A DNA stretch of 64,000 nucleotides. Origin: an uncultured Gemmatimonadota bacterium (GTDB taxonomy: Bacteria; JAAXHH01). This document shows positions 29,589-51,635 of the stretch, piece after piece. The stretch covers positions 2,880,001 to 2,944,000 of the forward strand of contig OX638340.1 of NCBI GenBank assembly GCA_951812955.1, written 5' to 3'. The notes under the pieces are model-generated. The model did not search any database. It saw only the letters and a program-made list of their open reading frames with translations, and was not told the origin of the DNA. The position numbers were made by a program, and so were the translations under genes. The first letter of the stretch is position 1. Each line of letters opens with the position of its first letter.

Positions 29589-29656
29589 GGACGATATAAG
29601 ACCCGAATAATGCCGGGATCCGGAGGGTTTCCCGGGCATCCAGTTGAGACAACTTT

Positions 29657-29688
29657 GAATTGACAATTCGCCTTTAGCACGTTAATTA
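29657..29688 (+). promoter_or_regulatory. candidate blaI promoter (TTGACA-N17-TAATTA) overlapping a perfect 6-1-6 palindrome GAATTGaCAATTC (putative BlaI-family operator)
   Basis: Seen directly in the AT-rich divergent region between the LpxH-like gene and blaI. Confidence 0.35.
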
Positions 29689-29757: not shown

Positions 29758-30177
29758 ATGGTGAATTCGGAGATGGACCGGATGGCCAGGAAGAAGCTGT
29801 CTTCGTTGACGGACCTGGAAATCGACATCATGAATGTCGTCTGGCGGCTGGGACGGGCGACGGTGCGCCAGATCGTCGATTCGCTTCGGGATCAGCGTCC
29901 CCTGGCGTACACGACAGTGCAGACGGTCCTGTCAATACTCACTCAGAAGGGCGTGGTTCAGTATACCCGCGAAGGCCGGGCCTATGTCTACACCGCCATC
30001 GTAAAGCCGGAAGGCGTGCGCAAGGAGACCGTCAGGGCCGTCGTGGACAAGTTGTTCGCCGGATCGCCGCAGTCCCTCGTGCTTCACCTGATCGAATCGG
30101 ACGCGTTAACCGCGGAGGAAGCCGAAAGCCTGCGCAAGCTGCTGGACCGGATGGCCTCGGAGGCGTCTGATGATTGA
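29758..30177 (+). CDS. BlaI/MecI/CopY-family transcriptional repressor
   Basis: Winged-helix N-terminus (LEIDIMNVVWRLGRATVRQIVD...YTTVQTVLSILTQKGVV) and a dimerisation C-terminus. The start could be at 29773 or 29782. Confidence 0.8.
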   Translation: MVNSEMDRMARKKLSSLTDLEIDIMNVVWRLGRATVRQIVDSLRDQRPLAYTTVQTVLSILTQKGVVQYTREGRAYVYTAIVKPEGVRKETVRAVVDKLFAGSPQSLVLHLIESDALTAEEAESLRKLLDRMASEASDD

Positions 30178-32056
30178 CCCGGGGTACGCGATAAACCTCT
30201 TCGAGCGGTTCGGCCGGCAGGTCGTGGACCTTCTGTGGCTGCCGAGCCTGGAAGCGTTGCTTCTGGGCGTTCTGGTCTGGGTCCTGCTTTTCGTAAACCG
30301 GGGATGTTCGCCCGGGATCAGGCATTTCCTCTGGTTGCTGGTGCTGGCAAAACCGCTGCTCACCCTTGTGTTGCCCTGGCAGGGACCTTTCGAGATCCCG
30401 TTGGCGTCGATAGCAGGATATGGAGATCCCGCCGCGGGCAATCATATCTTCCTGGCTTCCAGCATTTACGCCGCCGCGGGCTTGATCTGGATGGTCTTCG
30501 CAGGTTTCGGCCTGTACCGCATCGGTTCCTCGGTCATCACGATGACCCGCAGAAAGCGCAGGGCCGTTCCGGTCGCCGTCCCCCGGATACGCGCCTTGTT
30601 CGACGAATGTCTGGCCGAATTGGGACTGAAGCGCGGCGTGGCCTTGCGGGTCTCGGACGAGTTCGAAGGCCCCGCGTTGATCGCCGTGGGGCGGCCCGTA
30701 ATCGTGATCCCCTCCTGGTGCATCCTGGAGCTTTCCAACTCGGAACTCAAGCAGGTTCTGCTCCATGAACTGACGCATTATGCCCGGCGGGACCACCTCA
30801 CGGTAGTGCTGGTAGAATTCACCAGGATCTTCTTCTTCTTCCATCCGGCGGTCTGGTATGCCGCGCGCCGAGTAGGGATTGAGGCCGAACGGGCCTGCGA
30901 CGTGGCCGTCGTCCGTGTTTCCAAACATCCGGAACGCTATGCTTCTATCCTGCTCAAGGTTGCCGGAAGCAAGGTCAGGACGCACTGGCAGGCGGTCCTC
31001 GAACTGGCCAGGTCGGCCTCCGTCGTTGCCATACGTATCCGGGGCGTGCTCGGTTCGGCGGTGAACCGGAAGGGCAGCACCTTCTTCTCGTTGCTGGCCG
31101 CCGGTATATGCACGGTGTTCGCGGTCACGCCCATTTTGCGGCCGACGGTCCATGCCCCCGCCGACATGCCCGTGCCGGCGTGGACTAGCACACCCGACGA
31201 ACAGTCGATCCCCGGCCGGATCGATACGACTCCGGTCAGGCCGAGCCATGACGCCGTGGTAACCGGCGGGTCGAAATCGCTGGTCGAGCACGATCCGGCC
31301 CCGTCCGTCCGTGAAGAGACTCCCAGGATCATGGTCGATGGCCGGCCTTTGCAGCGTAGATCCATGGCCGACCTGATGGTTGATCGTAGCGTCCGGTATG
31401 CAGGCGTGGCCTACGCACCTGTGGGTAGCCAGAGAATAAACCCCGCCGTGCTCGGTCATTCAGCCGCCGCGAGGCTGCCGGACAGATCCCCAGCGCTGGG
31501 GAGCAAGCTCGGACCTGGACGTATCGAGGTGCAGGGTGTGGGTCAGACCGGGAACGCGTTGTTCGATCCGACCACGGTCTCCCTGAGCGCCGGTTATTTC
31601 CTTACATCCACCCACCAGTTCGGCGGCGTGTTTTCCATCCGGCGGCCGAACGATGCCGAATCGCTTGACGACACCTCGCGGTCCCCGGTTTCTTCGTATG
31701 ACGGCACCCCGCTTCGAGCCCGGAAACTGGCCGGGTACGGGACCACGGCGGTGCACGGGACGGTGCTTGAAACCCAGGAGGAAGAGCAGGCCGACCGGAT
31801 AACCCGGATCGGAGCCTTCTATCGGTACAACCCACTCGTTCCGGGTGGTTCCTTCACGCCTTTCTTCGGCTGGGGCACCGGACTGGAGATCAGGCCTCAG
31901 AACCGGTATATGGCCATGATCGACGCCGGGGTTGGACTGCGTTACTTCTGGGAACGGCACGTCGCCGTGATCGTGCAGGCTTCCTACCGAAAGGAGCTCG
32001 ATGTCACCTCGCGACCTTTCCCGGAGATGACGCTGGGCTTCTCAGCGATCTTCTAG
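30170..32056 (+). CDS. BlaR1/MecR1-family M56 peptidase sensor with a non-PBP beta-rich C-terminal domain
   Basis: Four N-terminal TM segments plus the HELTHYARRDH zinc motif. The C-terminal ~300 aa lack transpeptidase/SxxK motifs, are rich in alternating beta-strand patterns and end in ...LGFSAIF. Start overlaps the blaI stop. Confidence 0.7.
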   Translation: MIDPGYAINLFERFGRQVVDLLWLPSLEALLLGVLVWVLLFVNRGCSPGIRHFLWLLVLAKPLLTLVLPWQGPFEIPLASIAGYGDPAAGNHIFLASSIYAAAGLIWMVFAGFGLYRIGSSVITMTRRKRRAVPVAVPRIRALFDECLAELGLKRGVALRVSDEFEGPALIAVGRPVIVIPSWCILELSNSELKQVLLHELTHYARRDHLTVVLVEFTRIFFFFHPAVWYAARRVGIEAERACDVAVVRVSKHPERYASILLKVAGSKVRTHWQAVLELARSASVVAIRIRGVLGSAVNRKGSTFFSLLAAGICTVFAVTPILRPTVHAPADMPVPAWTSTPDEQSIPGRIDTTPVRPSHDAVVTGGSKSLVEHDPAPSVREETPRIMVDGRPLQRRSMADLMVDRSVRYAGVAYAPVGSQRINPAVLGHSAAARLPDRSPALGSKLGPGRIEVQGVGQTGNALFDPTTVSLSAGYFLTSTHQFGGVFSIRRPNDAESLDDTSRSPVSSYDGTPLRARKLAGYGTTAVHGTVLETQEEEQADRITRIGAFYRYNPLVPGGSFTPFFGWGTGLEIRPQNRYMAMIDAGVGLRYFWERHVAVIVQASYRKELDVTSRPFPEMTLGFSAIF

Positions 32057-32096: not shown

Positions 32097-33548
32097 ATGG
32101 ATCACCATATGAACAGAGCGGCCTCGGCGCTGATTATCGCCGGCGGCGCGGGCGTGCGCCTTCAAACGGTAACCGGCCAGGTTCCCAAACCCTTGATGAA
32201 GCTTTGCGGCGTGCCACTGATCAAGCGGATCATTTTGACAGCGGCCAGGGCCGGCATTTCGCGTTTCGTGATCGTAACGGGGTACCAGGCGGACCTCTTT
32301 CACGAGGTCCTTTCGGACGATCCCGGCCTGGACGGCTGCCGGATCGAGTGGGTGCATAACGAGCGGTGGCACCTGCCCAACGGGGTTTCCGCCCTGGCCG
32401 CCCGTTCCCGCCTGGCGGAACCGTTCGCGCTGCTCATGGCGGATCACCTCTTCGAGCAAAGTACGTTGGAGCGTCTGCTCGAGGAACCGGTCGCCGATGG
32501 GGAATGTCTGCTCGCCGTCGACCGGAAAATCGATAGCGTGTACGACCTGGACGACGCCACCAAGGTCGAGGTGCGCGGGGACGAAGTTGTTCGCATCGAT
32601 AAAGCGCTGCAGGAGTTCAATGCGGTAGACACGGGCATGTTCCTTTGTACGCCGGCACTGTTCGATGCCCTCGATGCCGTGGACGGACCGGAGGGGTGCG
32701 CGTTGAGCGACGGCGTCCGGGCGCTGGCGGAAGACGGGAGGATACACGCCTTCGACGTCGGCGATGGATTCTGGCAGGACGTGGATACGCCCGAAATGCT
32801 GGCGCACGGCGAAAAGAACCTCCTGGAGCGCCTAGTAAAGCCCACGGATGGCTGGATCGCCCGGTACTTGAACCGGCCGGTTTCGACCCGTCTCAGCCGA
32901 TGGCTGGTCCGGACGCCGATCACCCCCAACATGGTGACCCTGGTCACCTTCCTGACCGGCCTGGCCGGAGCGTGGTTCGTGATGGGCGGCACGTACTGGA
33001 CGGTACTTCTTGGCGCCTTTCTTTTCCAGGTTTCGTCCATCCTCGATGGATGCGACGGGGAGGTGGCGGTCCTGACCTTCCGCGAGTCGAAATACGGTTC
33101 ATGGCTCGACACGATCACGGACAACCTGACCTACCTGGCGTTTTTCTCCGCCGTTGTCTGGGCCTATGCGGGCGGTTCCGACGTAACGGCAATCCGGTAC
33201 CTCGGCCTGGTATCCGTCGCCGTGGTGACCGCGTCGATTCTCGCGATGTACTACTACCTGATGCAGACCGGGGGAAGCGGAAGTCTCGTAAGGTTCAACC
33301 GCGCCTTCGAAAGACACGCCGTCGGGCGGCGCCGCAACCTCTCCGCCAGGCTGCTCAATCTGTTTCGGATGATGTGCAAAAGGGATTTCTTTACCTTGTT
33401 GTTGCTGGTTTTTGCCGCAATCGGACTCCTGAACTGGATGTTCTGGACCGTAACGGCCGGCGGCCTGGCCATGGGTCTGGCCATATTCATTTCGACGGGG
33501 CGGCTGTTGGCGCGGGACCGGGCGGTTGAGCAGATGGAGCGCTCATGA
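32097..33548 (+). CDS. bifunctional nucleotidyltransferase / CDP-alcohol phosphotransferase (IPCT/DIPPS-like)
   Basis: N-terminal sugar/polyol-phosphate nucleotidyltransferase motif (IIAGGAGVRL...PKPLMKL). C-terminal CDP-OH P-transferase motif DGCDGEVAVLTFRESKYGSWLDTITDNLT in a polytopic membrane domain. Confidence 0.7.
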   Translation: MDHHMNRAASALIIAGGAGVRLQTVTGQVPKPLMKLCGVPLIKRIILTAARAGISRFVIVTGYQADLFHEVLSDDPGLDGCRIEWVHNERWHLPNGVSALAARSRLAEPFALLMADHLFEQSTLERLLEEPVADGECLLAVDRKIDSVYDLDDATKVEVRGDEVVRIDKALQEFNAVDTGMFLCTPALFDALDAVDGPEGCALSDGVRALAEDGRIHAFDVGDGFWQDVDTPEMLAHGEKNLLERLVKPTDGWIARYLNRPVSTRLSRWLVRTPITPNMVTLVTFLTGLAGAWFVMGGTYWTVLLGAFLFQVSSILDGCDGEVAVLTFRESKYGSWLDTITDNLTYLAFFSAVVWAYAGGSDVTAIRYLGLVSVAVVTASILAMYYYLMQTGGSGSLVRFNRAFERHAVGRRRNLSARLLNLFRMMCKRDFFTLLLLVFAAIGLLNWMFWTVTAGGLAMGLAIFISTGRLLARDRAVEQMERS

Positions 33549-34318
33549 GCGGATTACTGTACCATGTACGGGGACTTTTTACCCTCCGGATCAGGAAGGA
33601 TCTCAACTTCCGCAGGGTCCAGGAAACGGTCCCGGCGCTGCGCTGGCTGAAGCCGCGCAGGGGCGAGCGGATTCTCGATATAGGCTGCGGAGAAGGGACC
33701 TATGATTACCGGGTCGCCATGCGAGGCGCCGAGGTATTCGGTTTAGATTTGAACCGGCACCAATTGCGGCGTGCCGCGTCCTATCACAAGACCCCTTCGA
33801 CGGGATTCTTCTGTGCCGATGCGGGCGCGTTCCCCGTTCGCTCGGGACAGTTCGACACGGTCATGAGCCTGTGCGTCTTCGAGCACCTGCCGGACGACCG
33901 ACAGACGCTGAGGGAGATGTGGCGCGTATTGCGGCCCGGGGGACGCATCCTGTTGACGCTGGACAGTCTGAGCCTCGGGGGGATCGGCGAGGCGTGGCGC
34001 GACGAGCACCGGGAACGTCACAGCGTCCTTCAATTCTATTCGCATCCGTCGGTCGGCTCGTTGCTGGAGGCGTGTGGGTTCAGACTGATAAGACACCGCT
34101 ACCTGCTTCGTTCGAAGCTGGACCTGGCGCTGATCCGGTTGAGCTATGCTACCGAGCGCATGCACGCGATCCCGGCGGCGCTGGTCCGATTGGGGCTGGT
34201 ATCGATCGGCCGGGCAGTGTCTGCGGTTTTTAACCTGTTCACGAAAAACCACGGGGGATGGACGCTGTTGATCGAAGCAGACAGGAAGACCCCCCGTCCG
34301 GCGAATTCCCCACCATGA
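33545..34318 (+). CDS. class I SAM-dependent methyltransferase
   Basis: ILDIGCGEGTY motif I and LRPGGRILLT. ATGA overlap with the upstream gene. Confidence 0.7.
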   Translation: MSGLLYHVRGLFTLRIRKDLNFRRVQETVPALRWLKPRRGERILDIGCGEGTYDYRVAMRGAEVFGLDLNRHQLRRAASYHKTPSTGFFCADAGAFPVRSGQFDTVMSLCVFEHLPDDRQTLREMWRVLRPGGRILLTLDSLSLGGIGEAWRDEHRERHSVLQFYSHPSVGSLLEACGFRLIRHRYLLRSKLDLALIRLSYATERMHAIPAALVRLGLVSIGRAVSAVFNLFTKNHGGWTLLIEADRKTPRPANSPP

Positions 34319-35868
34319 AGCGTACCCTTGAGCAAACGGTTCCGGACCGGTCCGACACCGACGCATCGGCGATCGCCCGGGGCGCGGCCGTCAATTTCAT
34401 CGGAACGGTGGCGCGGCTTACCAAGTCCGTGTCGTTCATCGTCCTTACGCGGCTGTTCGGCGCCGAGATTTTCGGCCTGTACATGCTCGGATGGACCATC
34501 GTGGATCTCGTGGGAAAGGTGGCCCAGTTCTCGTTGGACAAGGGCTTGATCAATTTCATCCCGCGTATGCGCGAGGACGGGAAGAAGGACGCCATCCACC
34601 GAATCATCGCGCAGGCCCTGGGCGTGGGCCTGCTGCTGAGCGTTGGGGTCGGCGCCGCGCTATATGTCGGCGCGCCCGCGCTGGCCGAAGGGCTGCTCGA
34701 AAAGCCACGGCTCACCGGCATGCTGCGGTTGTTGGCGATCGGACTGCCGCTAATCGCCCTGACCCACATCATTTTGGGCGTCACCCGGGCTCACAAAGTC
34801 ATGAAGTACGACGCCATGGTCCGGGGCGCGGTCGAGCCGCTGGTGCTATTCGGGGCGGCCTGCGCCTTGTTCTACTGGGGCTGGCGCACCTACGGCATCG
34901 CCGCGGCCCACCTGGCCGCGCTGACCGGCGGCCTGCTGTTCGCCGTTTACGTGTTCACCAGGTTCTATTCCTGGCGTGCCTGTCTCGTCCACCTGCGCGA
35001 ACTGCGTTTCGTCACTCCGCTGACCCGATTCTCGCTGCCGGTAATGGGCTATGAACTGGTCTACATGGCCATGATACGTCTTGACGTGCTCATGGTCGGC
35101 TACTTCCTGCCGGCGGCGCAGGTGGGCATCTACGTGATCGCGGTCGAAATCGCCTTGCTGACCAAGAAGGTCCGCCAGTGGTTCGACCCGATTTTCAGTC
35201 CCATCGTCGCCGAACTGAATCACCGCAACGACCTGCCGCGGCTGGAGCGCAACCTCAGGCTGGTCACCCGGTGGGTCCTGACCATCGGCGTGGGGTTCCT
35301 CTGCGTCATAGCACTGATCGGCAATGAATTGCTGGGGCTGTTCGGTCCGGCATTCGTCACCGGGTTCATGGCGATGGTCGTCCTGGCCATGAGCCAGGTC
35401 GTATATGCCGCCATGGGTTCTGGCGATACCGTGCTCATCATGTCGGGCCGGCCCTATCTGAATCTCATCAACACGGTCGTGGTCGTAGCAGTGAATTTCG
35501 CCCTGAACCTGTGGCTGATACCATCCCTGGGCATCCTGGGCGCCGCCCTGGGAACGCTGGTATCCTTCGGCCTGCTGACACTAACGCGCCTGGTCGAGGT
35601 ATACCACCTGTTCCGGATCCATCCCCTGGACTGGCGCATTTTGAAGCCCTGCGCCGCAGCGGTCGTCGCCTTCGCATGCGCGTACATGGCGGGGGCCTAC
35701 GCGCCTGATGCCCCGTGGTTGCGCATGGCCGCGCTGCCTCTGATTTTCCTGGCCCCCTATCTCGGTGTGCTGTTCCTGATGGGTTTGGAAGAGGATGACC
35801 GGATCGTGCTCCGGCGCCTGCGGGGGCGGTGGGCACGAAGACGTGGGCACCGAGCTTCAGCGCCATGA
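34315..35868 (+). CDS. MOP-superfamily flippase (Wzx/polysaccharide-biosynthesis-protein type)
   Basis: About 500-aa protein with 12-14 predicted TM helices and Wzx-like N-terminal blocks. Start MKRTLEQ overlaps the upstream stop. Confidence 0.6.
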   Translation: MKRTLEQTVPDRSDTDASAIARGAAVNFIGTVARLTKSVSFIVLTRLFGAEIFGLYMLGWTIVDLVGKVAQFSLDKGLINFIPRMREDGKKDAIHRIIAQALGVGLLLSVGVGAALYVGAPALAEGLLEKPRLTGMLRLLAIGLPLIALTHIILGVTRAHKVMKYDAMVRGAVEPLVLFGAACALFYWGWRTYGIAAAHLAALTGGLLFAVYVFTRFYSWRACLVHLRELRFVTPLTRFSLPVMGYELVYMAMIRLDVLMVGYFLPAAQVGIYVIAVEIALLTKKVRQWFDPIFSPIVAELNHRNDLPRLERNLRLVTRWVLTIGVGFLCVIALIGNELLGLFGPAFVTGFMAMVVLAMSQVVYAAMGSGDTVLIMSGRPYLNLINTVVVVAVNFALNLWLIPSLGILGAALGTLVSFGLLTLTRLVEVYHLFRIHPLDWRILKPCAAAVVAFACAYMAGAYAPDAPWLRMAALPLIFLAPYLGVLFLMGLEEDDRIVLRRLRGRWARRRGHRASAP

Positions 35869-35940
35869 CGTTAGTGGTCCGGCGCCTGCGGGGCCTGTGC
35901 GGCCCGCCGCCTCTACCCGGTAAGAGGCCAAGCGCAAGCC

Positions 35941-37284
35941 GTGGGATGGAGGGGAGCGCGTACTTGGGACATCTGTCGACGGGGAGACTTGGTTATTTTG
36001 AATTACAGCGTGGTATTGTTCGCCGATACGGATGACATCACAGCCGGCGCCGGTCGATCGGTTTACGGCATTTCTCTGTTGGAACGGCACCTTCGGGTCT
36101 TTGCTTCCCTGGGGGCCCGGCGGGTAACCGTGGTCGGACCTGCACCCGGCCGGGGTTCGAAGGTCCGAGTCGACGGATTCGACGAACGCTGGTTCGCTGA
36201 GCTGCGCGCCGTCGACTGCGTGGGGGCCGAAGAAAGCCCTGCCCGCTGGCTGCCCGGGAAGGACGAAGTGGCCCTGGTGCTGGACGCCCACCACCTGTAT
36301 GACCCGCGTGTCCTGCGGGCCATGGTCGAAGGCGGCCCGAACCGTAAAGCCGCGGACTCGGCAGTCAGGGAATCCTGCAGGCTGCTGGTGGCCGACGCAG
36401 ACCTGCTCGCAAGCCTCACAGCGTGCTGGAACGGCTCCGAATCACTATGGTCATCGCTGGACTCGGCGCGGGAATCGACCTGCCCGGTATTCGATCTCCG
36501 CGAAATGGACCCCTATATCGTGGATCTGCGCCGAAGCCTGCCCCCCTGGTGGGTGGTCCTGGGTTCGGACCGGAAAGCGCGCCGGGCGGAGGCGCTTCTG
36601 ATCAATGCCGCACAGAAGGGAACGCTGGATTTTCCGGCGGAATTCATACATCCACCCCTGGAGAACCTGCTTACAAAGTGGATCTCGGCCGGAACCGTGA
36701 CGCCTAACCAGGTAACCACCCTCACCATATTGCTGGCCTTCCTGACCACCGGCCTGCTGGCCGTGGGGCAATCGGGCCCGGGTTACACGGCCGCCGGACT
36801 GATCATCGCCTTCATCGTCGGAGTACTGGACGGGGTCGACGGCAAGTTGGCCCGTGTTACGGTGCGATGCACGCGGTTCGGGGACCGATTTGAACACATC
36901 CTGGACGTGATCTGGGAGCTGACCTGGTACTGGGCCCTGGGGTGGATGCTCGGCGGCAGTGGCGATGTGGCGGGGCCTTTCGTGCTCGCTTCGGTAATCA
37001 CGCTCTTTTATCTGCTTGACAAGACGGCCACGGGGATGTTCAAGTCACGGCAGGGAATCGAACTGTTTGACTACGAGCCCATGGATCGCTTTTTTCGCCG
37101 TATCGGCGCCCGGCGCAACACGAACGTCCTGCTGCTGCTGGGTGGTACGGCGGCAGGTATGCTGGAGGAAGCGTTTACATGCGTGGCCATCTGGACGGTG
37201 ATTACGGCGGCGTTTCACTGGACGCGGGCGATCTGGGTGCTGTCGAAGCCGACATCGGCCGGCGATGTGAAACGGCTTCCTTAA
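35941..37284 (+). CDS. second CDP-alcohol phosphotransferase with divergent N-terminal nucleotidyltransferase-like domain
   Basis: DGVDGKLARVTVRCTRFGDRFEHILD motif in the membrane domain. The N-terminal ~230 aa resemble an NTP-transferase fold (LFADTDDITAGAGRS) but lack the canonical G-x-G-x-R...K residues. Confidence 0.6.
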   Translation: MGWRGARTWDICRRGDLVILNYSVVLFADTDDITAGAGRSVYGISLLERHLRVFASLGARRVTVVGPAPGRGSKVRVDGFDERWFAELRAVDCVGAEESPARWLPGKDEVALVLDAHHLYDPRVLRAMVEGGPNRKAADSAVRESCRLLVADADLLASLTACWNGSESLWSSLDSARESTCPVFDLREMDPYIVDLRRSLPPWWVVLGSDRKARRAEALLINAAQKGTLDFPAEFIHPPLENLLTKWISAGTVTPNQVTTLTILLAFLTTGLLAVGQSGPGYTAAGLIIAFIVGVLDGVDGKLARVTVRCTRFGDRFEHILDVIWELTWYWALGWMLGGSGDVAGPFVLASVITLFYLLDKTATGMFKSRQGIELFDYEPMDRFFRRIGARRNTNVLLLLGGTAAGMLEEAFTCVAIWTVITAAFHWTRAIWVLSKPTSAGDVKRLP

Positions 37285-37426
37285 CGCCAGCCACGATTTC
37301 TCCCGGGCATGGGCCGGCCCATGCCCGTTAATTTGGATCAAAAAGTGGAATTGTGCGTCTAATATGCTTGATAATGAGCGAGTCGGCCATGGCTGTGCGT
37401 CGACGCTTGTGCTAAGCGGAGGCATC

Positions 37427-38803
37427 GTGTTTCGTTTCCTGGTCCACATCCTGGCGGTATCTCTGATCACGGGGCCGGCGGTCGCACAGGGATCGGACCG
37501 TCCCGTACAGGCCGTCCAATCCGTCCGGATGACGCTGGAGCAGTGCGTGGACAGGGCGTTGACGGTCAGTCCTGATATCGAGCAGGCGGCCCTTGCCGTC
37601 GAAGGCCTGGAAGCCAGGTTGAGCGAAGCGAAATTTGCGGGCATCGCACCCCGGTTGCAGTGGACCAACATCTTCGGTCCGGCGCCCGGCATAAAAGGCG
37701 ATACAGAACGGGTCGAGACCATCCGGAGCGACCTGTCCGACCTGGGCGTTTTTTCCCGCACGCAGATCGAATTGGTCCAGCCGCTGTATACCTTCGGGAA
37801 GCTCAGCAATGCGAAGAAGGCGGCCGGATACGGTCTCGAGGCGGGCGAGGCCGCCGTGGAATCCAGGAAGCACGACGTGGCCTTCCAGGTTAAGAAACTG
37901 TTCTACGGACTCGTGTTGGCCCGTGAACTCAGGGAAATCATTCTGGAAAGCGAAGAAAGCGTACGTGAAGCCCGGGAGCGCGTCAACGAGATGATCGAGG
38001 AGGATTCGGAAGATGTCGGCCAGAACGACCTGTTGAAAATCGATGTCTTCGAGTATGAAGTGCAACAGAGCCGGGCGCGGGCCGAGAAGTCGATCGAAAT
38101 AGGGAAGGCGGCGCTGAAATCGGTGCTTGAAATCGATCGCTCCAGCGATTTCGATATCGTCGACACGACCGCGGAACCCAGTACGGCAGACCTCGACGGA
38201 CTGGAATTCTACATCGAACAGGCGAAGAACCGGCGGTACGACATCCGGCAGCTCAGGGCCGGCGTGCTGGCCCGCCGCGCGCTGCTGAAGGTAGCCCGGA
38301 GCGACTACTACCCCCAGATCGCCCTTGCGGGGTCCATCCAGTGGGGTATCGCGCCCCACCGGCCGGAACTCGACAATCCGTTCCTCAGGGACGAGTTCAA
38401 TTTCCTGCGGGGGGGCGCGGTGATTACCTTGCGGCAGAACTTCAATTTCGGCCTGACCCGCGCGAAGTACCAGGCCAGGAAAGTGGAGCTGGAAGCGCTG
38501 GTGACCAGGGAATCACAGGCGATGAACGCGATCGAACTGCAGGTGGAATCGACCTACCGGGACGTGATCGAGGCCCGTACCAACGTCGTCAACAGCGACC
38601 GGGCGCTTCGCTCCGCCAGGGCATGGCTGACATCGGCAAAGCTGGGCTTCGACATCACGGGAGACAGTTCGGAATTGCTGGACGCCTTCACCGCGCACGC
38701 GAAAATGCAACATGCACACCGGCAGTCGCTTTTCCAGTACCGGGTTTCGCTGGCCGAACTCGATCACGTAACCGGTAACGGGATTTCAAATGTGCGGCGC
38801 TGA
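37427..38803 (+). CDS. TolC-like outer-membrane efflux protein (OMF family)
   Basis: Signal peptide after a GTG start (GGAGG-N5-GTG). Paired coiled-coil/beta-barrel repeats typical of OMF proteins. Confidence 0.7.
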   Translation: MFRFLVHILAVSLITGPAVAQGSDRPVQAVQSVRMTLEQCVDRALTVSPDIEQAALAVEGLEARLSEAKFAGIAPRLQWTNIFGPAPGIKGDTERVETIRSDLSDLGVFSRTQIELVQPLYTFGKLSNAKKAAGYGLEAGEAAVESRKHDVAFQVKKLFYGLVLARELREIILESEESVREARERVNEMIEEDSEDVGQNDLLKIDVFEYEVQQSRARAEKSIEIGKAALKSVLEIDRSSDFDIVDTTAEPSTADLDGLEFYIEQAKNRRYDIRQLRAGVLARRALLKVARSDYYPQIALAGSIQWGIAPHRPELDNPFLRDEFNFLRGGAVITLRQNFNFGLTRAKYQARKVELEALVTRESQAMNAIELQVESTYRDVIEARTNVVNSDRALRSARAWLTSAKLGFDITGDSSELLDAFTAHAKMQHAHRQSLFQYRVSLAELDHVTGNGISNVRR

Positions 38804-38824
38804 CACACGGAACGGAGGATGGTC

Positions 38825-39655
38825 ATGAAGAATCGACGTGCGGGGGCGGGCAGGACGCTCAGTCTGGTGGCTGGCACCGTCCTGTTGCTCATTGCCACGT
38901 TCATCGATCCGTCTTCCGTCCTTCGCACGGACTCAGCGGATAAAGGAACGCCGCCCCGATTTTCCGTGCTGGGGATCGACTCTTTTGTTCCGGCAGCCGC
39001 GCGGGCGGATCATCCTCAACGCCGCGATGATCGTCGTGCGTCCGTCCTCATCGATGGCTTCGACAGTTCGGCCCCGGGCAGCTTCCCCCTGACCTGGAAG
39101 GCCTGGCGGGGAGACGATGACCTGGCTCGAAAAACGTATACGATCCGGGAGGAAAACGGAAACCGGTATCTCCACGCCGCCGACGACGGCTCATCCATCA
39201 TCATTCGCAAGCAGCTTAGCGAATGGGATGCGAACGAATACCCGGTGCTGTCATGGCGCTGGAGGGCGAAGGTCCTGCCCGAAGACGGAGATGAACGCAT
39301 CGGTTCCAGGAACGACAGTTCAGTGGCCGTGTACGTGGTCCTGGATCAGAACTTCATCGGCGTGCCCAAAACCCTGAAGTACGTCTGGAGTACCACCCTG
39401 CCGGTCGGCACCCATCACCGCCGCGACGGTATTGGCCGTCCCCACGTGATCGTGCTCGAAAGCGGTACGGAGAAGCTCGGGGAATGGGTCAAGGAGTCGG
39501 TCGACGTGTATGCGGACTATGTCCGGATCTTCGGGAAAAAGCCGCCCCGGAAAGCCGTAGGGATCGGTATTCTTACGGATGGCAACGCGACGGGAACGGA
39601 CTCGAAGGGGGATTACGACGACTTCATGGTTCATCGCCGGAACACCGGGTCCTGA
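38825..39655 (+). CDS. DUF3047-family protein (secreted)
   Basis: Signal peptide plus DUF3047-like blocks (WKAWRGD...YLHA...SSVAVYVV). Confidence 0.5.
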   Translation: MKNRRAGAGRTLSLVAGTVLLLIATFIDPSSVLRTDSADKGTPPRFSVLGIDSFVPAAARADHPQRRDDRRASVLIDGFDSSAPGSFPLTWKAWRGDDDLARKTYTIREENGNRYLHAADDGSSIIIRKQLSEWDANEYPVLSWRWRAKVLPEDGDERIGSRNDSSVAVYVVLDQNFIGVPKTLKYVWSTTLPVGTHHRRDGIGRPHVIVLESGTEKLGEWVKESVDVYADYVRIFGKKPPRKAVGIGILTDGNATGTDSKGDYDDFMVHRRNTGS

Positions 39656-39690
39656 CCCGTCAATTCCGGCCGGAAGGTAGGAGGAAGAAA

Positions 39691-40290
39691 ATGCATGCTA
39701 TTTGCCGCGCACTCCGCCCCTTGGGACCACTTGTCGCCTGGGCGGCGGTGTCGTTGATCGCTTTCGGGAGTAACGCGCAGGAATACTCGCCCATCGAGAC
39801 CCTGAAACAGCGGGACGCCGCGTTACTCGGCCTGGATGGAGCCACCACCGAAGCGGCACGGGACAGTCTCGTGCGCCGGGCCGTCGTCGAGGGGTTCGAT
39901 TTCGTACGACACAGCCGTATCTCGCTCGGCAGGCACTGGCGGGAGAGGACGGACGCGGAACAAGAAGAATTCGTTTCGGTCCTGCGTAAGTGGACGGAAA
40001 ACCGGGCCCTCGACAAGTTGCGCAAGCGGTCGGACAGGACGACTTATGACGGAGAGGAGACCCGGGGCAGCAGGTCGCTGGTGAGAACCACGGTATGGTA
40101 CAAGGGTACCAAAACACTCGTCGACTACAAGATGGAGTTGCAGGAAGGGCACTGGCTCATTTACGACATGGTCATCGACGGGGCGAGCGTCGCGCTGGCC
40201 AACCGGGACGCATTCTACAAGAAGATCAGCAGGACCTCCTACGACGAATTGCTCGATACCCTACTCGCAAAAACCCTTGAAATAGAGTAG
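39691..40290 (+). CDS. MlaC/Ttg2D-family periplasmic phospholipid-binding protein
   Basis: Block-by-block match to MlaC (FDFVRHSRISLGRHWRERTDAEQEEF ... VDYKMELQEGHWLIYDMVIDGASVALANRDAF). GGAGGA RBS precedes the ATG at 39691. Confidence 0.8.
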   Translation: MHAICRALRPLGPLVAWAAVSLIAFGSNAQEYSPIETLKQRDAALLGLDGATTEAARDSLVRRAVVEGFDFVRHSRISLGRHWRERTDAEQEEFVSVLRKWTENRALDKLRKRSDRTTYDGEETRGSRSLVRTTVWYKGTKTLVDYKMELQEGHWLIYDMVIDGASVALANRDAFYKKISRTSYDELLDTLLAKTLEIE

Positions 40291-40370
40291 TATTTCTTGT
40301 ATATTTCCGGGTCTGTGAGATATACTCGTTTCAAGCGGTATATTCATGTCCTAAGTTTTTAGGAGACAGA

Positions 40371-41813
40371 ATGGCGAAGACGGTATACGACCGGTGTATC
40401 TTTTTCCTCGTCGACGGCGCCCGCGAAGACGTCATGCGGGAAATGACCGAGGCGGGCGAACTGCCTGCCCTGCGGCGCTACGTGCTGGACAGGGGAGACT
40501 ACCGAAAGGCGGTGACTTCGTTTCCGTCCACGACCGGTCCGGCCCATGTGCCCTTTCTGACCGGTTGTACGCCCGGTTCGTGCAATCTCCCCGGAATCCG
40601 CTGGTTCGACCGGTCCCAGCCCAATGGTCTCACCCATTTCCGCCAGGCGCGCAGTTACGTGGGTCCGGGAGGCCTGTATATCGACCAGGACCTCAAGGAT
40701 GAAGTCCACACCATCTTCGAGTACTTCGAGCGCCCGGCGGGGGTCTTCAGTTTTGTGAACAGGGGATTGGGCATATTCGAAAACCGGACGCTGCTGACCA
40801 GGGGCTGGTACTGGCTATACGCCCATTACTCCGGCCAGTGGCAGGCCGTGGACGACGCGGCCTGGCGGTACATCGACCGGGCCGTTGACCAGGGCGCCGA
40901 TTTCCTGTCGGTCGTATTCCCCGCGGTGGACGAATACTCGCATTACACCGATCCATTTTCGGACGCCACGTTGAACGCGTACCGGGAATTCGACCGGGGG
41001 CTCGGCAGGTTGGCGGAGCGGCTTCAACGGCAGGACAGACTGGACAGTACGCTTTTCGTGATCTCCAGCGATCATGGCCTGACCTCTACGCACACGCACT
41101 TCGAACTTTGGTCGTTTTTTGACGAATTGGGATTCAACACGCTGTATTATCCCCGGATCCTGCGCAACGGATGCGACGCGGCAACTATGGTCTCGGGCAA
41201 CGGCATGGCGCATATCTACCTCAAGAAAGGCGACTCCTGGGAAGAAAGGCCTTCCTACGAGGAGATCCGCACGCTGGGGGAAACGGACCCGATCGAAGCC
41301 CTGCTGGGGCAGGAGGCGATCGACCTTGTGGCGGCGGTCCAGGATGACTCGGTCATCGTCTGCGGGCGCCGGGGGATCAGTGAAATTAGGGAGACGCCCG
41401 AAGGCATCGCGTACCGGGTTATTGAGGGCCAGGATCCGTTCGGCTATGGAGGCATCCCGGCTGAAGCGTCCGATGAGCAATTGCTCTCCGCCACGTTCGA
41501 CACGGACTATCCCGACGCGCCTTACCAATTGCTGCGTGTCCTCGGTTCTCCGCGGTCGGGCGATTTGATCGTCAGTGCGCGAAAAGGCTACGATCTGAGA
41601 TACCGGTACGAGCATCCTGAGCACAAGTCGACCCATGGTTCACTGCATCGCGACCATATGCACGTTCCCTTGATGATGAATACGGAGATTGCGGCGGACC
41701 ACGTGCGCACCGTGGACCTCTTCCCCGCCATGCTGAACCTGACGGGGCGTTTGGTCGAAGGAACTATTGACGGCAGAGATTCTGTCACCGCCGCTTCGCG
41801 TGCGGTGGCGTAG
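40371..41813 (+). CDS. type I phosphodiesterase / nucleotide pyrophosphatase (NPP, alkaline-phosphatase superfamily)
   Basis: FPSTTGPAHVPFLTG metal/nucleophile-Thr motif and further NPP-like blocks (SSDHG). AGGAGA RBS. Confidence 0.7.
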   Translation: MAKTVYDRCIFFLVDGAREDVMREMTEAGELPALRRYVLDRGDYRKAVTSFPSTTGPAHVPFLTGCTPGSCNLPGIRWFDRSQPNGLTHFRQARSYVGPGGLYIDQDLKDEVHTIFEYFERPAGVFSFVNRGLGIFENRTLLTRGWYWLYAHYSGQWQAVDDAAWRYIDRAVDQGADFLSVVFPAVDEYSHYTDPFSDATLNAYREFDRGLGRLAERLQRQDRLDSTLFVISSDHGLTSTHTHFELWSFFDELGFNTLYYPRILRNGCDAATMVSGNGMAHIYLKKGDSWEERPSYEEIRTLGETDPIEALLGQEAIDLVAAVQDDSVIVCGRRGISEIRETPEGIAYRVIEGQDPFGYGGIPAEASDEQLLSATFDTDYPDAPYQLLRVLGSPRSGDLIVSARKGYDLRYRYEHPEHKSTHGSLHRDHMHVPLMMNTEIAADHVRTVDLFPAMLNLTGRLVEGTIDGRDSVTAASRAVA

Positions 41814-41822
41814 GAGTAATCC

Positions 41823-42914
41823 ATGTCCGAGCAGGTCCAGATTGCCCCGGCGCCGGAACCTGTCCCGCCGTCTCCCGCGCTGCCCGTACTGCAACCGGAC
41901 TCGGGCTATCTCGGGTACGACCGGGCGCTGTTGCGGCCCATGTCCCTCGGCACTAAGCTCCGAGCCTTGTTCAAGTACCTCTGGGTACGATTGAAGGGCG
42001 GACCGATGGCGGTGAACATGGAGGTGACCTATCTGTGCAACGCCACCTGCGATTTCTGTGATTACTGGAAGACGAAACGTTCAGGCAAGCTGGGCGATTA
42101 CGACTACATGGAGGCGCTCAGGAAGCTGAACCCCCTGACGGTCACGCTGACCGGCGGGGAACCCATGATCAACAAGCGACTGCCCGAGGCGGTCAGACGC
42201 ATCAAGGATGGCCTGGGATTCGTTTATATCGGCATGGTCACCCACGGATCTCTGCTGACCGTAGAAAAGGCCATGGCCCTGTGGGATGCCGGCGTGGACC
42301 ACATTTCGATCTCGTTGAACTATATCGGCCGCGAACATGACGAGGAACGGGGTATCGCGGGTTTGTACGAGCATATCTCCACGCTCGTTCCCCAGCTGAC
42401 GGCCCGAGGGGTCAACGTGATCTTCAACACGGTGATCATGCGTGAGAACCTGGACCACGTCGTACCCATCGCGCACCTGGCGCGTTCTATGGGCGCGAAG
42501 GTTTCCTACAGTTGCTACAGCGACTACAAGAATGGGAACGAAACCCACCTTGTGGATCCCGGTCACGAGGAGCAGTTGGAATCCGTGATCGAGGATCTGA
42601 TCTACCAGAAATCCCGATTGGGAAACATCGTCAATTCCGCCTGGTACTTGCGCCGGATCCCCGATTACTTCCAGGATGCGCTTCCAAGGTCCTGCACGGC
42701 AGCGGGCAAGTGGCTGGTGCAACTGACTCCCGACGGCAACGTAAAACCCTGTGCGGAACTGCCCGTAATGTCCGGGTATGCCGATTTCAAGCGGGTTTCA
42801 ACGAAGATCGACTGCAACCGGTGCTGGTACAGTTGCCGGGGTGAGACCGAATCTTCGTTGAAGCTTGTAAGGGTGCTGGAAGGCCTGGGCAGGGCCTGGC
42901 GCAGTAGCGCTTAA
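41823..42914 (+). CDS. radical SAM enzyme with C-terminal SPASM/twitch-like Cys cluster
   Basis: CNATCDFCDYW (CxxxCxxC) plus C-terminal Cys-rich CAELPV...CNRCWYSCRGE. AGGAG RBS. Confidence 0.75.
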   Translation: MSEQVQIAPAPEPVPPSPALPVLQPDSGYLGYDRALLRPMSLGTKLRALFKYLWVRLKGGPMAVNMEVTYLCNATCDFCDYWKTKRSGKLGDYDYMEALRKLNPLTVTLTGGEPMINKRLPEAVRRIKDGLGFVYIGMVTHGSLLTVEKAMALWDAGVDHISISLNYIGREHDEERGIAGLYEHISTLVPQLTARGVNVIFNTVIMRENLDHVVPIAHLARSMGAKVSYSCYSDYKNGNETHLVDPGHEEQLESVIEDLIYQKSRLGNIVNSAWYLRRIPDYFQDALPRSCTAAGKWLVQLTPDGNVKPCAELPVMSGYADFKRVSTKIDCNRCWYSCRGETESSLKLVRVLEGLGRAWRSSA

Positions 42915-45900
42915 ACTACTACCGGCGCCAGTTCCCGGGCGAGGATCTTCCCGGTATGGGACAACAGGGACGCTGCGATATCCTCGGGCGTACCCGCGGC
43001 AACCACGTGACCGCCCCGGTCACCGCCTTCCGGACCTAGATCGACGATCCAGTCGGCCGTCTTGATGACGTCCAGGTTGTGTTCGATGACGAGCACGGTG
43101 TTCCCCTTGTCCACCAGCCTGTTGAGGACGTTCAGCAACTTGCGGATGTCGTCGAAGTGCAGCCCGGTGGTCGGCTCGTCCAGCAGGTAGACGGTCTTGC
43201 CGGTACCCGGCCGCGAGAGCTCCTTCGCCAGCTTGACGCGTTGCGCCTCGCCTCCCGAGAGCGTAATGGCCGACTGGCCGAGCTTGATGTAGTCGAGTCC
43301 CACGTCGTAAAGCGTCTGCAACATACGCCGGATGCGGGGCACGTTCTCGAAGTGCTCCAGGGCTTCGGCCACGGTCATCTCCAGCGTATCCGCGATCGTC
43401 TTACCCTTGTAGGTCACTTCCAGCGTCTCCTTCATGTAGCGCTTGCCGTCGCACACTTCGCAGGTCATCCACACGTCCGCCAGGAAATGCATCTCGATCT
43501 TGCGCACGCCGAGTCCCTGGCAGGCCTCGCACCGTCCAGCGGGCACGTTGAAGCTGAACCGTCGGGGTTCGTAGCCCCGCATCCGAGCCTCCACGGTCCG
43601 GGAGAAGAGCGACCGGATCGGCGCGAAGAGCCCGACGTAGGTGGATGGATCCGACCTGGGGGAATGGCCGATCGGGGTCTGGTCGATGTTTATGACCTTG
43701 TCCACGAACCGCAACCCCTTGATTTCATCGTGGGGTCCAGGGTTTACCTGGGCGCGGTGCAGGGTGGAGGCCAGCACAGGATGAAGGATGTCGTTGACGA
43801 GCGAGCTCTTTCCCGAACCGGACACCCCTGTGACGCAGATGAAAACGCCAAGGGGCAACGTCACGTCGATGTTCTTCAGGTTGTTCTGGCGCGCCCCGAG
43901 GATGCTAAGCCTGTTCCGGCCCGGCTTGCGGCGGTCCCGCGGCACTTCGATGCGAAGCCTGTTTCCCAGGTAACTGCCGGTGAGTGAAGTCTCGAGTTCC
44001 CTGAGGGCGGCGGGGGTGCCTTCGCCCACGATCCGGCCTCCGAACACCCCCGCTCCCGGTCCGAAATCCACCAGGTTGTCGGCATGCTCCAGCGTGTCGC
44101 GGTCGTGTTCGACCATGATCAGCGTATTGCCGAGATCGCGCAGGTTCTCCAGGGCATGGATCAGCCTGAGGTTGTCCCGCGGGTGAAGCCCGATCGTGGG
44201 TTCGTCCAGCACGTAGAGCACGCCGGTCAGCCCCGATCCGATCTGGCTGGCCAAACGGATTCGCTGTGCTTCGCCGCCCGATAGCGAGGGCGCCCGGCGG
44301 TCGAGGGTCAGGTATTCCAGCCCCACGTCGAGGAGGAAGCGCATGCGGTTTCTGATTTCCTTCATCACCTCGCCCACGACTTCCCGCTGCGGCGCCGAGA
44401 GTTTCAGGCCTTCGATGAAGTCCAGGGCACGGTCGGTGGACATGGCGCATAGCGCCGCAATGGACACGCCGTCGATCAGCACGGAAAGGCTTTCGGATCG
44501 GAGCCGTCCGCCTTCACATGCCGAGCAGGGCGTCGGCTGCAGGAGGCGGGCCAGTTCGGGAAAGCGGTTCGCGTAGCGGGCGACCAGTTCCACGGCCGGG
44601 AAGATGCCCCGGAACTGGAAGGACAGGCCGGGGACCCGTTGGTCCTCTATCCACCGGTCGCTGCCATAGAGCAACACCTGGAGCTGTTCTGCCGACAGCG
44701 CTTCAACGGGCGTCTCCAGGTTGAATCCCTGGGTGGACGCCACCAGTTCAAGCAGGTCGAGTATGGACCGTTCGCCCACCGTGCCTTCCTCCCAGATCGC
44801 AGCCGCGGCGTCCCTTATGGATTTCGAACGATCGGGAATCAACAGGTCGAGATCGATGCCGGGCTGGGTTCCGAGTCCCTCGCAATCGGGGCACATGCCC
44901 GCCCGGTGGTTGAATGAGAAGCTCTGGGGCGAGAGTTCGTCGTAACTGACTCCGCAGGCGGGACACGAATAGTACCGGCTGAAGCGGATATCGTGTGGAC
45001 CGGCGGAATCCGGTTCCTGCACCTCGGCGATCAGCAATCCCCCCGATAGGTCCAATGCCGTCTCCACCGAATCGGCCAGGCGCTGTCGGACGTCGCCCTG
45101 CATGACGATCCGGTCTACCACCACGCACAGTTCGTGGCGCCGCCGCCGGTCGATCTGAATGTCCTCTTCGAGCCGCCGCAACACGCCATCGATGCGTACC
45201 CGGATGAACCCGTTCCGGCGGGCCCTGTCCAGAAGGGCATCGTATCCCTCGGCGCCTTCGGGTTCCAGCGGCGCATGCAGCGTGGCGCGGGTCTGCTCCG
45301 GGAGGGTCATGATGCGGTCCACGATCTGGCTGGGCGTCTGCGCGCCGATGGGAACGCGGCAGGCGGGGCAGTGGGGCGCGCCGACCAGGGCGTAGAGTGC
45401 GCGCAGGTACTCGTAGATCTCCGTAATGGTGCCCACCGTGGAGCGTGGGTTCCGGCCCGGCGCCTTCTGTTCGATGGATATGGCCGGGGAAAGGCCGACG
45501 ATATGGTCCACCTTCGGCTTCTGCATCTGCTGGAGGAACTGGCGCGCGTAGGCTGAAAGGGATTCCACGTACCGTCTCTGGCCTTCCGCGTAGATCGTAT
45601 CGAGGGCCAGGGAAGTTTTCCCGGAGCCGGAAACGCCCGTGAACACGGTCATCCGGTCCCGGGGGACAGCCACGGTGAGGTCACGCAGGTTGTGCTCCCG
45701 CGCGCCGCGCACGGTGATCTCCCGTATGTGGCCGTCTCCTGCTGCGTCCTGCCTGACCGGTTTAGGAGCCACGGGGAGCGCCCGGGGCCGAAGCGCCTTC
45801 TCCAGGATCCGGCCCGTGGACGATCCGTCGACGCCCGCCACGGTCTCCGGCGTTCCCTCCGCGATGACGCGGCCGCCCGCGTCGCCGCCCTCCGGGCCCA

Positions 45901-49570: not shown

Positions 49571-49680
49571 AGGATCCCGGGTGGCTCCGGTTTCCAATAA
49601 GCTTGACAAGACCCTGGTCCAATCTTAGGATTCAATGTCATTTCATTCTGTCTGAATACGGGAAAAACAAAGGATTCTAC

Positions 49681-51626: not shown

Positions 51627-51635
51627 TGGAGCCTT

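Follow-up and report, generated by a model that had tools for sequence, protein, structure and literature searches.

A conserved nine-gene envelope array in an uncultured Gemmatimonadota bacterium and its possible role in CDP-inositol-dependent lipid synthesis and export

The window analysed here is a stretch of 64,000 nucleotides from an uncultured Gemmatimonadota bacterium (assembly GCA_951812955.1, contig OX638340.1, positions 2,880,001 to 2,944,000), and coordinates given without a locus name refer to it. Close homologues, going by their names, likewise point to Gemmatimonadota. At 32097-42914 it carries an array of nine genes (g1 to g9), all on the + strand, built around two fusions of a nucleotidyltransferase-type domain with a cytidine diphosphate (CDP)-alcohol phosphotransferase domain. 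We conclude that the array is a real, conserved envelope-lipid locus of two modules, and we propose, with a probability of roughly 0.55 as judged from the sequences, that its enzymes would use CDP-inositol to make an inositol-phosphate lipid or glycoconjugate, which would then be flipped and exported to the outer membrane.

A sequence-only reading of the window had described nine co-directional genes with named domains, the first two junctions being 4-bp overlaps, and both descriptions were confirmed: all nine open reading frames (ORFs) were found on the + strand, each with a Pfam domain match, and g1/g2 and g2/g3 both overlap by ATGA, which suggests translational coupling of g1-g2-g3. The remaining gaps in the array measure 9-132 bp. 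The longest ORFs are too long for g3, g4 and g7; the start of g4 is probably TTG 35998, because its homologues are 424-428 aa long, and the true start of g5 may lie slightly downstream of 37364. The genes are as follows.

32097-33548, + strand: g1, IPCT-like domain plus a CDP-alcohol phosphotransferase domain with six transmembrane (TM) segments (Pfam NTP_transferase/NTP_transf_3 and CDP-OH_P_transf)
33545-34318, + strand: g2, class I S-adenosylmethionine (SAM)-dependent methyltransferase (Pfam Methyltransf_11, E=8e-22)
34315-35868, + strand: g3, MOP/Wzx-type flippase with about 12 or more TM-like segments (Pfam Polysacc_synt, E=7e-19, and Polysacc_synt_3; hydropathy scan)
35998-37284, + strand: g4, g1 paralogue with a degenerate cytidylyltransferase-like domain and a CDP-alcohol phosphotransferase domain (Pfam CDP-OH_P_transf)
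37364-38803, + strand: g5, TolC-like outer-membrane factor with a signal peptide (Pfam OEP, E=2e-39; N-terminal hydrophobic segment)
38819-39655, + strand: g6, DUF3047 protein anchored in the membrane by its N-terminus, with a concanavalin-like beta-sandwich in the periplasm (Pfam DUF3047; predicted fold)
39691-40290, + strand: g7, periplasmic MlaC-family lipid-binding protein with a signal peptide (Pfam MlaC, E=6e-28)
40371-41813, + strand: g8, alkaline-phosphatase-superfamily (NPP-type) phosphodiesterase or phosphatase (Pfam Phosphodiest, E=5e-29)
41823-42914, + strand: g9, radical SAM enzyme with CxxxCxxC and a C-terminal auxiliary Cys cluster (Pfam Radical_SAM, E=1e-18)

Relatives were sought by scanning one genome per species, and the loci obtained were then searched with the array proteins and with myo-inositol-phosphate synthase (MIPS), MMPL and other neighbours. 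A 12-gene arrangement, in which an LpxH-like, a BlaI-like and a BlaR1-like gene precede g1-g9, recurs as a whole in L007, L008, L009 and L026 at g1 identities of 84-90%, and it is largely kept in the metagenome contig L089, which ends within g8. Since this arrangement recurs in relatives and the same families re-associate in other orders in distant phyla, the grouping of the array genes is not due to chance.

The g1 fusion enzyme, its clade and its acceptor site

The prediction that g1 is an IPCT/DIPPS-like fusion was borne out by its two Pfam domains and by its best matches, which are the IPCT/DIPPS equivalog NF041135 in NCBIfam (237 bits, under the cut-off of 580) and the Archaeoglobus fulgidus IPCT/DIPPS in the PDB (4mnd, E=4e-48; 2.6e-76 with the family profile). 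The N-terminal domain carries AGGAGVRL...PKPL, i.e., the GxGxR...K signature. The family profile also matched the IPCT structures 2xme (3.8e-41) and 4jd0 (7.7e-35), with other nucleotidyltransferases at 3e-14 or worse; given the lead of the IPCT structures over every other match, which exceeds 20 orders of magnitude, g1 is less likely to be a nucleotidyltransferase for glycerol phosphate, choline phosphate or a sugar phosphate. Weak NCBIfam matches of g1 and g2 to the DVU_1551/DVU_1556 families fell far under the cut-offs.

A neighbour-joining tree of 83 complete g1-family members split cleanly into clade A (35 members, the window included) and clade B (48 members), with protein lengths of 470-540 aa and 435-460 aa, respectively. 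MIPS was encoded within 6 kb in 20/48 clade B members and in 1/35 of clade A. Conversely, envelope-type neighbours within the same distance, counted as OEP, MlaC, MMPL-type resistance-nodulation-division (RND) transporter, DUF3047, MOP flippase, g4-like, g2-like methyltransferase or radical SAM genes, were found for 32 of the 34 clade A members besides the window and for none of clade B. The commonest clade A context is OEP-g1-MlaC-MMPL, present in at least 13 Latescibacterota/Gemmatimonadota loci, and its RND protein is similar to HpnN and BstA (HAE3 RND), which export hopanoids and sterols; another clade A locus, L003, encodes MIPS, a phosphatidylinositol-phosphate (PIP)-synthase-like protein, a g1-like protein and MMPL. 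Linkage of the g1 clade to flippase, MlaC and OEP genes, which the sequence-only reading had put forward as a check, thus recurs across phyla. At present, clade A enzymes carry no annotation other than 'NTP transferase domain-containing protein' or di-myo-inositol phosphate (DIP) synthase.

Conserved positions common to the two clades number 75, about 50 of them in the nucleotidyltransferase domain, and include G17, G19, R21, K31, D116 and the D178-T179-G180 motif, as well as the four Asp and two Gly of the phosphotransferase motif. The activated alcohol of clade A is therefore probably the same as that of clade B, inositol-1-phosphate, and inositol is our best guess for the alcohol activated by g1.

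The acceptor side of the enzyme differs between the clades, as three arginines conserved in clade B are lost in clade A, corresponding in g1 to R325->V, R343->N and R432->F. In the phosphotransferase motif of g1 (DGCDGEVAV...GSWLDTITD) the four Asp and two Gly are kept, and the 'AR' arginine, which is Arg in at least 85% of clade B and Lys in most clade A members, is Val. The Arg following the catalytic D4 is Asn in g1 (D342-N343) as compared to DR in AfDIPPS, and the second Arg of RDxR is Phe (KRDFF, as compared to KRDERIF in AfDIPPS and TRDFRLL in AF2299), most clade A members having [KR]RDFF. The Arg-rich inositol-1-phosphate acceptor site, made up of RDxR in the penultimate TM helix and the Arg after D4, is thus incomplete in g1. 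PIP synthases hold their inositol-phosphate acceptor by its phosphate, using conserved arginines and an RxxR motif, and the RxxR motif also governs acceptor choice in CEPT1 (PMC4634129). By analogy with the PIP synthases, the loss of these charges would fit a switch to an uncharged acceptor. Extra TM helices for a lipid acceptor were looked for in g1 by a hydropathy scan and were not found, the added length forming a loop between TM4 and TM5.

These results bear on whether g1 could be an ordinary IPCT/DIPPS making DIP or a related phosphodiester, with g8 as the DIPP phosphatase and the envelope genes as unrelated neighbours. The identity of its best NCBIfam and PDB matches, the six-TM membrane domain and the phosphatase-type enzyme in the array would all suit such a solute pathway. 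Yet the equivalog score reaches less than half of the cut-off, the clade is separate from the MIPS-linked enzymes, the arginines lost include the second Arg of the RxxR acceptor motif, and there is no MIPS in the window. Moreover, the linkage to lipid-transport genes is tight and conserved in several phyla, with the OEP ORF overlapping the g1 start in the OEP-g1-MlaC-MMPL operon of L005, and relatives were found in metagenomes of sponge, marine and soil origin rather than in hyperthermophiles. We therefore regard a solute pathway as very improbable, in line with the earlier suggestion that g1 does not act as the DIP synthase of a solute pathway; the genes linked to its clade in different phyla encode a flippase, MlaC, an outer-membrane factor and lipid-type RND exporters, and not MIPS.

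The g4 paralogue and the partner genes

The second fusion, g4, turned out to be a full-length paralogue of g1 and not a second bifunctional enzyme, since its nucleotidyltransferase domain is degenerate and AF2299-like. Alignment of the g4 and g1 family profiles (hhalign) extended over the full length with a probability of 99.9% and E=1.7e-32. Pfam gave no match in the N-terminal half of g4, and Foldseek matched this domain to RmlA-type nucleotidyltransferases; the AF2 model of g4 (pLDDT 85) had 4mnd (6e-14) and AF2299 (4e-13) as top Foldseek matches. The GxGxR...PKPL signature is gone and LDGVDGKLAR...G...(D/E)xxxD is invariant or nearly so, and we therefore regard g4, on sequence and model comparison, as a g1 paralogue whose cytidylyltransferase domain is predicted to be dead and whose transferase domain is probably active.

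The g4 family is large, comprising 539 diverse representatives (50% identity, E<=1e-30), and 80 metagenome loci, 35 of them at least 10 kb long, were obtained in a scan with g4 as anchor. In 50/80 loci the g4-like gene is adjoined by a radical SAM gene that differs from g9 and belongs to the type seen in the Zixibacteria relative. A MOP flippase is present in 28/80 (20 of the 35 longer ones), and a g1-like gene, mostly a free-standing N-domain only, in 21/80. The family labelled 'unk536', whose soil homologues match PMT_2 (ArnT-like glycosyltransferases of the GT-C type), is present in 27/80. MIPS occurs in 9/80, including 8 of the 35 longer loci, where it lies within about 8 kb, and the loci with MIPS also carry a free-standing cytidylyltransferase resembling the N-domain of g1. 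In the soil locus L164 (L164:2595-19812) the order is MIPS, OEP, OEP, HlyD, MacB-type permease, ABC ATPase, g4-like, radical SAM, PMT_2, GT9 (heptosyltransferase-like), MOP, GT2, SDR and nucleotidyltransferase, and similar clusters were found in L121, L126, L129, L143 and L144. This recurrent soil cluster looks like a pathway for a glycosylated inositol lipid or for decoration of lipopolysaccharide (LPS). By their gene content, the metagenome loci connect the g4 family with inositol and with a donor that would be made in trans, and the soil loci appear to be fuller, putatively glycosylating versions of the system.

The same loci raise the possibility that the product is not a free lipid. In a carrier-lipid route, g1 and g4 would load phospho-inositol onto undecaprenol or undecaprenyl phosphate, g3 would flip the resulting polyprenyl-P(P)-inositol, an ArnT/PMT_2-like GT-C enzyme would move the inositol (phosphate) to LPS, lipid A or another glycoconjugate, and g5-g7 would handle the product. 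The Polysacc_synt/Wzx type of the g3 flippase and the divergent LpxH-like gene upstream would be at home in such a route, and so would the L164 combination of g4-like, radical SAM, PMT_2 GT-C, GT9, MOP, GT2 and free-standing nucleotidyltransferase genes. In addition, g4 and g5 are separated by a radical SAM/SPASM gene and a GT-C-like gene in two relatives with 52-65% g1 identity (L091 and L094) and in the Zixibacteria contig L001 (L001:14543-17162 and L094:5300-8790). The GT-C-like protein, 'unk536', is a multi-pass protein of 520-540 aa with no direct Pfam match; it is homologous to PMT_2 proteins, being 45-48% identical to soil proteins that match PMT_2 (e.g., L118:4309-5823, E=1.8e-11). However, neither the window nor its closest relatives (L007-9, L026, L089 and L090) contain the GT-C gene, and the commonest clade A context has neither flippase nor GT-C but MlaC and an HpnN-like RND, two proteins that handle free lipids. 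We further know of no CDP-alcohol phosphotransferase that uses a polyprenyl acceptor. On balance we hold the carrier-lipid route to be unlikely and favour transfer to a membrane lipid that is itself exported.

Transport to the outer membrane would fall to g5, g6 and g7, which have signal or anchor sequences. OEP genes like g5 flank clade A g1 homologues in L005, L012-L024, L031 and L045, and g7 is 39% identical to the MlaC of the L005 operon; its match to NCBIfam HpnM (54 bits) is under the cut-off. The DUF3047 protein g6 models as a lectin-like concanavalin beta-sandwich, a lectin/glycan-binding fold. DUF3047 is naturally fused to MlaC in the proteins P0327 and P0329, and OEP-DUF3047-MlaC-MMPL operons occur in L087, L088 and L013. 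DUF3047 may thus be a head-group-recognising partner of the lipid shuttle. Searching solved structures with the g6 sequence gave no match, and DUF3047 appeared in the literature in one ecogenomic survey only. An LptA- or LolA-like lipid carrier was considered for DUF3047 and ruled out by the predicted concanavalin-like fold. At L087:1146-5481 and L088:3661-6376, OEP-DUF3047-MlaC-MMPL and OEP-DUF3047 operons were observed with no g1 gene visible on the contigs. Pfam identified no inner-membrane lipid-transport partner, be it an MlaFEDB ABC complex or an HpnN-type RND, among the nine genes.

Regarding the putative tailoring enzymes, g2 co-occurs with g1/g3/g4 in L010, L011, L092, L094 and L099. 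Neither g8 nor g9 has a signal or anchor sequence, and since g8 lacks both a signal peptide and a TM segment it is predicted to be cytoplasmic; its matches in the PDB are only weak, the best being NPP (E=1.5e-4). The earlier proposal that this phosphodiesterase trims the product is pure inference and was not supported. The radical SAM/SPASM call for g9 held for Radical_SAM, whereas SPASM was not called by Pfam, although a C-terminal Cys cluster (291, 310, 331, 334 and 338) is present in addition to the cysteines at 72/76/79. The best PDB match of g9 is PqqE (E=7e-16), and the searches of solved structures with g6, g8 and g9 were uninformative as to substrate. Orthologues of g9 with 42-46% identity lie directly after g1 homologues in L027 (a Myxococcota metagenome-assembled genome, MAG), L028 (a bacterial MAG) and L033 (a Methylomirabilota MAG), and one with 39% identity is found in L135. 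As housekeeping genes surround the pair in L027 and L028, g1 plus radical SAM looks like a minimal unit.

Two modules, the upstream switch and the surroundings

The following features border the array or divide it.

28833-29666, - strand: LpxH-like calcineurin-type metallophosphoesterase, a divergent neighbour whose membership in the system is uncertain (Pfam Metallophos)
29758-30177, + strand: BlaI/CopY-family winged-helix repressor (NCBIfam CopY/TcrY 80 bits and BlaI 70 bits, both under cut-off)
30170-32056, + strand: BlaR1-like M56 membrane metalloprotease sensor with about six TM-like segments (Pfam Peptidase_M56, E=3.5e-34)
37304-37327, + strand: GC-rich hairpin with a 10-bp stem, a 4-nt loop and a weak T tail (terminator-like scan)
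37333-37363, + strand: conserved non-coding element TTGGATCAAnAGGTGnAC...GCGTCTAAT 5' of g5 (alignment with L007, L008, L009 and L026)

Promoter and terminator scans gave counts at chance level, and only the hairpin between g4 and g5 stood out. The g4/g5 intergenic region folds at -30.9 kcal/mol; the hairpin sequence is not conserved, relatives carrying other GC-rich structures at the site, and a role as terminator or attenuator is possible. The adjacent 31-nt element, which is unique in the window, consists of blocks that are invariant across the window, L007, L008, L009 and L026 while the flanks diverge, and it is likely an internal promoter or operator. An Rfam scan detected no RNA family in or near the array. 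From the hairpin and the conserved element it follows that the array is probably not one operon, so that the nine genes described earlier as one unit are conserved as a grouping but probably form two modules and transcription units, g1-g4 and g5-g9.

Such a division invites the question whether the two modules are merely juxtaposed, with g5-g9 functioning, for example, as a general lipid or efflux system. Besides the hairpin and the promoter-like element, this idea draws on the insertion of two extra genes at the g4/g5 junction of relatives, on the confinement of g8 to close relatives, and on the OEP-DUF3047-MlaC-MMPL modules of contigs L087 and L088, where no g1 gene is visible. Functional independence is nevertheless improbable in our view, as the families of both modules come together again in L013 (OEP-MlaC-DUF3047-g1-MlaC-MMPL), L031 (OEP-MlaC-g1-g4-MOP-MMPL-DUF3047), L045 and L135 (g4-OEP-MMPL-MlaC-rSAM-g1, rSAM denoting radical SAM), and as a g9-type radical SAM gene directly follows g1 in L027, L028 and L033.

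A BlaI/BlaR1-type switch and a divergent LpxH-like gene had been noted upstream of the array, and both are present, but their linkage extends only down to about 63% g1 identity. The BlaI-like gene overlaps the BlaR1-like gene by 8 bp, and the latter ends 40 bp before g1. In the BlaR1-like protein only the M56 domain (residues 23-275 of 628) was recognised, with no recognisable penicillin-binding (beta-lactam-binding) domain and 88 bits against the blaR1_generic cut-off of 400, and we regard it as a putative signal protease. The LpxH-like gene scored 95 bits against the NCBIfam UDP-2,3-diacylglucosamine diphosphatase family (cut-off 134). It holds the same position in L001, L007-L009, L026 and L089, and the BlaR1-like gene adjoins g1 homologues in L001, L007-9, L026, L089 and L092. 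Since synteny with the Zixibacteria contig L001 extends over about 9 kb upstream, the linkage of BlaI/BlaR1 and the LpxH-like gene may reflect shared ancestry. The BlaI/CopY operator TACAnnTGTA was not enriched and did not occur in the relevant intergenic regions.

The L001 synteny runs in the order Methyltransf_16, PolyA_pol, M50, MR_MLE, Metallophos, BlaI and BlaR1, and its lone break in the window is occupied by a collagen triple-helix-repeat protein of 474 aa (27088-28512, + strand). Downstream, a gene for a 1918-aa tandem-duplicated UvrA converges on g9; its ORF (42911-48667, - strand) overlaps g9 by 4 bp and encodes two full UvrA units with two UvrA_inter and two UvrA_DNA-bind domains. 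Further on, 48572-53140 (+ strand) holds a methyltransferase 29% identical to g2 (48572-49570) and two GFO/IDH/MocA oxidoreductases (49252-50724 and 52028-53140), which are also found near L001, L005 and L088; the GFO/IDH/MocA family includes inositol dehydrogenases. Elsewhere in the window there is a cobalamin riboswitch (9786-9989, - strand; 117 bits against a gathering score of 31.5), adjoined by a divergent CbiZ (adenosylcobinamide amidohydrolase) gene (10168-11298, + strand), and a 1064-aa protein (60797-63991, - strand) with Cache, Big_2 and a weak autotransporter beta-domain match, whose ORF may run off the window end.

Proposed pathway and relation to known systems

From domain identities, paralogy, clade separation, gene linkage and the folds of predicted models we infer the inositol substrate, the lipid acceptor, the order of steps, the direction of transport and the roles of g2, g8 and g9 as follows. 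The cytoplasmic N-domain of g1 would convert cytidine triphosphate and inositol-1-phosphate to CDP-inositol, the inositol-phosphate synthase having to be encoded outside the window. The six-TM domain of g1 would then transfer phospho-inositol to a non-phosphorylated membrane-embedded alcohol, not to inositol-1-phosphate; a diacylglycerol-type lipid would be the most likely acceptor, with an ether lipid, ceramide or an existing lipid head group as alternatives. Using CDP-inositol made in trans, g4 would carry out a second or alternative phospho-alcohol transfer. The product would be methylated by g2 and flipped to the periplasmic leaflet by the Wzx-like g3, and the MlaC-type g7 shuttle would carry it to the outer membrane together with the lectin-like g6 and the TolC-like g5. 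The radical SAM enzyme g9, and perhaps g8, would act as cytoplasmic tailoring enzymes, and BlaI/BlaR1 would probably put the locus under an envelope signal.

Several observations weigh against this proposal. As to gene content, tblastn searches of the 64-kb window with the MIPS, MMPL, PIP-synthase-like and 'unk536' proteins of relatives found nothing, so that neither MIPS nor an MMPL/RND transporter is present; the radical SAM/SPASM and GT-C-like pair of L001, L091 and L094, missing in the window and in its closest relatives, hints at the carrier-lipid route; and g8 is linked only in window-like arrays (L007-9, L026, L089, L091 and L094), down to about 65% g1 identity. MOP/Wzx flippases classically flip polyprenyl-PP-glycans, not phospholipids. 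The probable split into two transcription units divides the array, and the clade separation comes from a simple tree without support values. Within g1, the first Arg of RDxR is kept, and the membrane domain has only about six TM helices, an architecture tied to soluble acceptors, eukaryotic lipid-acceptor enzymes having 3-4 more TM helices (PMC4634129).

Going further, we suggest tentatively, and with considerably more doubt, that several largely uncultured Gram-negative lineages (among them Gemmatimonadota, Latescibacterota, Zixibacteria, KSB1 and soil bacteria) make a new class of outer-membrane inositol-phosphate (glyco)lipid, for which g1 and g4, as an enzyme pair derived from DIPPS, would install one or two phospho-inositol units and which would have a dedicated export route. 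The product might be a di-inositol-phosphate head group, for example, or a polyprenyl-P-inositol donor for an ArnT-like transferase, and it would reach the outer membrane by an MlaC/DUF3047/TolC-like (or HpnN-like) route. If true, this class would be a bacterial counterpart of the inositol glycolipids of the phosphatidylinositol mannoside (PIM) or glycosylinositol phosphorylceramide (GIPC) type.

Inositol lipids are considered rare in bacteria, and the CDP-inositol route has been demonstrated biochemically in one case (Rhodothermus) and proposed in another (Bacteroides/Prevotella). The large g4 family occurs in tight clusters together with genes for lipid export to the outer membrane, in several phyla that have been little studied. 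These loci offer a testable function for the whole IPCT/DIPPS-like clade A, give DUF3047 a candidate partner in MlaC along with a predicted lectin-like fold, provide in g4 an example of a dead-domain paralogue beside an active sibling, and may help to account for the delivery of non-LPS lipids to the outer membrane.

The closest characterised enzyme, the A. fulgidus IPCT/DIPPS, shares with g1 the two-domain architecture, the cytidylyltransferase residues and the core DxxDGxxA...GxxxDxxxD. Unlike it, g1 belongs to a separate clade, scores under the equivalog cut-off, is not MIPS-linked, has three Arg replaced and about 40 extra residues between TM4 and TM5, and is embedded in lipid-transport/flippase operons. 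For g4 the nearest counterpart is AF2299 of A. fulgidus (PDB 4o6m; PMC4634129), which likewise combines a non-catalytic cytidylyltransferase-like domain with a CDP-alcohol phosphotransferase (target-normalised TM-score 0.74-0.79, E ~4e-13); identity is about 15%, and g4 has RRNxN for RDFR and Glu for the third motif Asp.

With respect to transport, g7 belongs to the MlaC/HpnM family, and relatives of the array pair it with an HpnN/BstA-like RND, as in the HpnN/HpnM (hopanoid), BstA (sterol) and Mla systems; the array, however, is without RND, MlaFEDB and MlaA, and has a Wzx-like flippase, a TolC-like channel and DUF3047 instead. The soil versions resemble the mycobacterial pathway to phosphatidylinositol, PIM, lipomannan and lipoarabinomannan in an inositol-lipid anchor made on the cytoplasmic face, flipping and periplasmic GT-C glycosyltransferases. 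In contrast, the mycobacterial pathway uses CDP-diacylglycerol and inositol-1-phosphate (PIP synthase), and the window version is without glycosyltransferases.

The earlier statement that no described pathway has this make-up was correct for the gene composition, but the core CDP-inositol chemistry has precedents in R. marinus and Bacteroides/Prevotella. In the Rhodothermus marinus IPCT/BEPIS operon, a lipid receives its head group from CDP-inositol, BEPIS being a bacterial dialkylether glycerophosphoinositol synthase (PMC4587543, PMC9246714), and a CDP-inositol 'Kennedy-like' alternative cluster was proposed for Bacteroides vulgatus/Prevotella (PMC9246714). By their descriptions these systems are like the proposed function of the array in that inositol rather than the lipid is activated, as CDP-inositol, and phospho-inositol is passed to a lipid alcohol. 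Their genes are separate and share an operon with MIPS, joined in Bacteroides by a HAD hydrolase, whereas in the array the activities are fused, a pseudo-nucleotidyltransferase paralogue is added, MIPS is not nearby, and there are an extra flippase, MlaC, DUF3047, OEP, methyltransferase, NPP and radical SAM. The searchable literature held no description of the fused clade A enzyme, the pseudo-enzyme paralogue, the DUF3047-MlaC partnership or the overall gene composition. In conclusion, the array is most likely an uncharacterised variant of the rare BEPIS-type bacterial lipid pathway.

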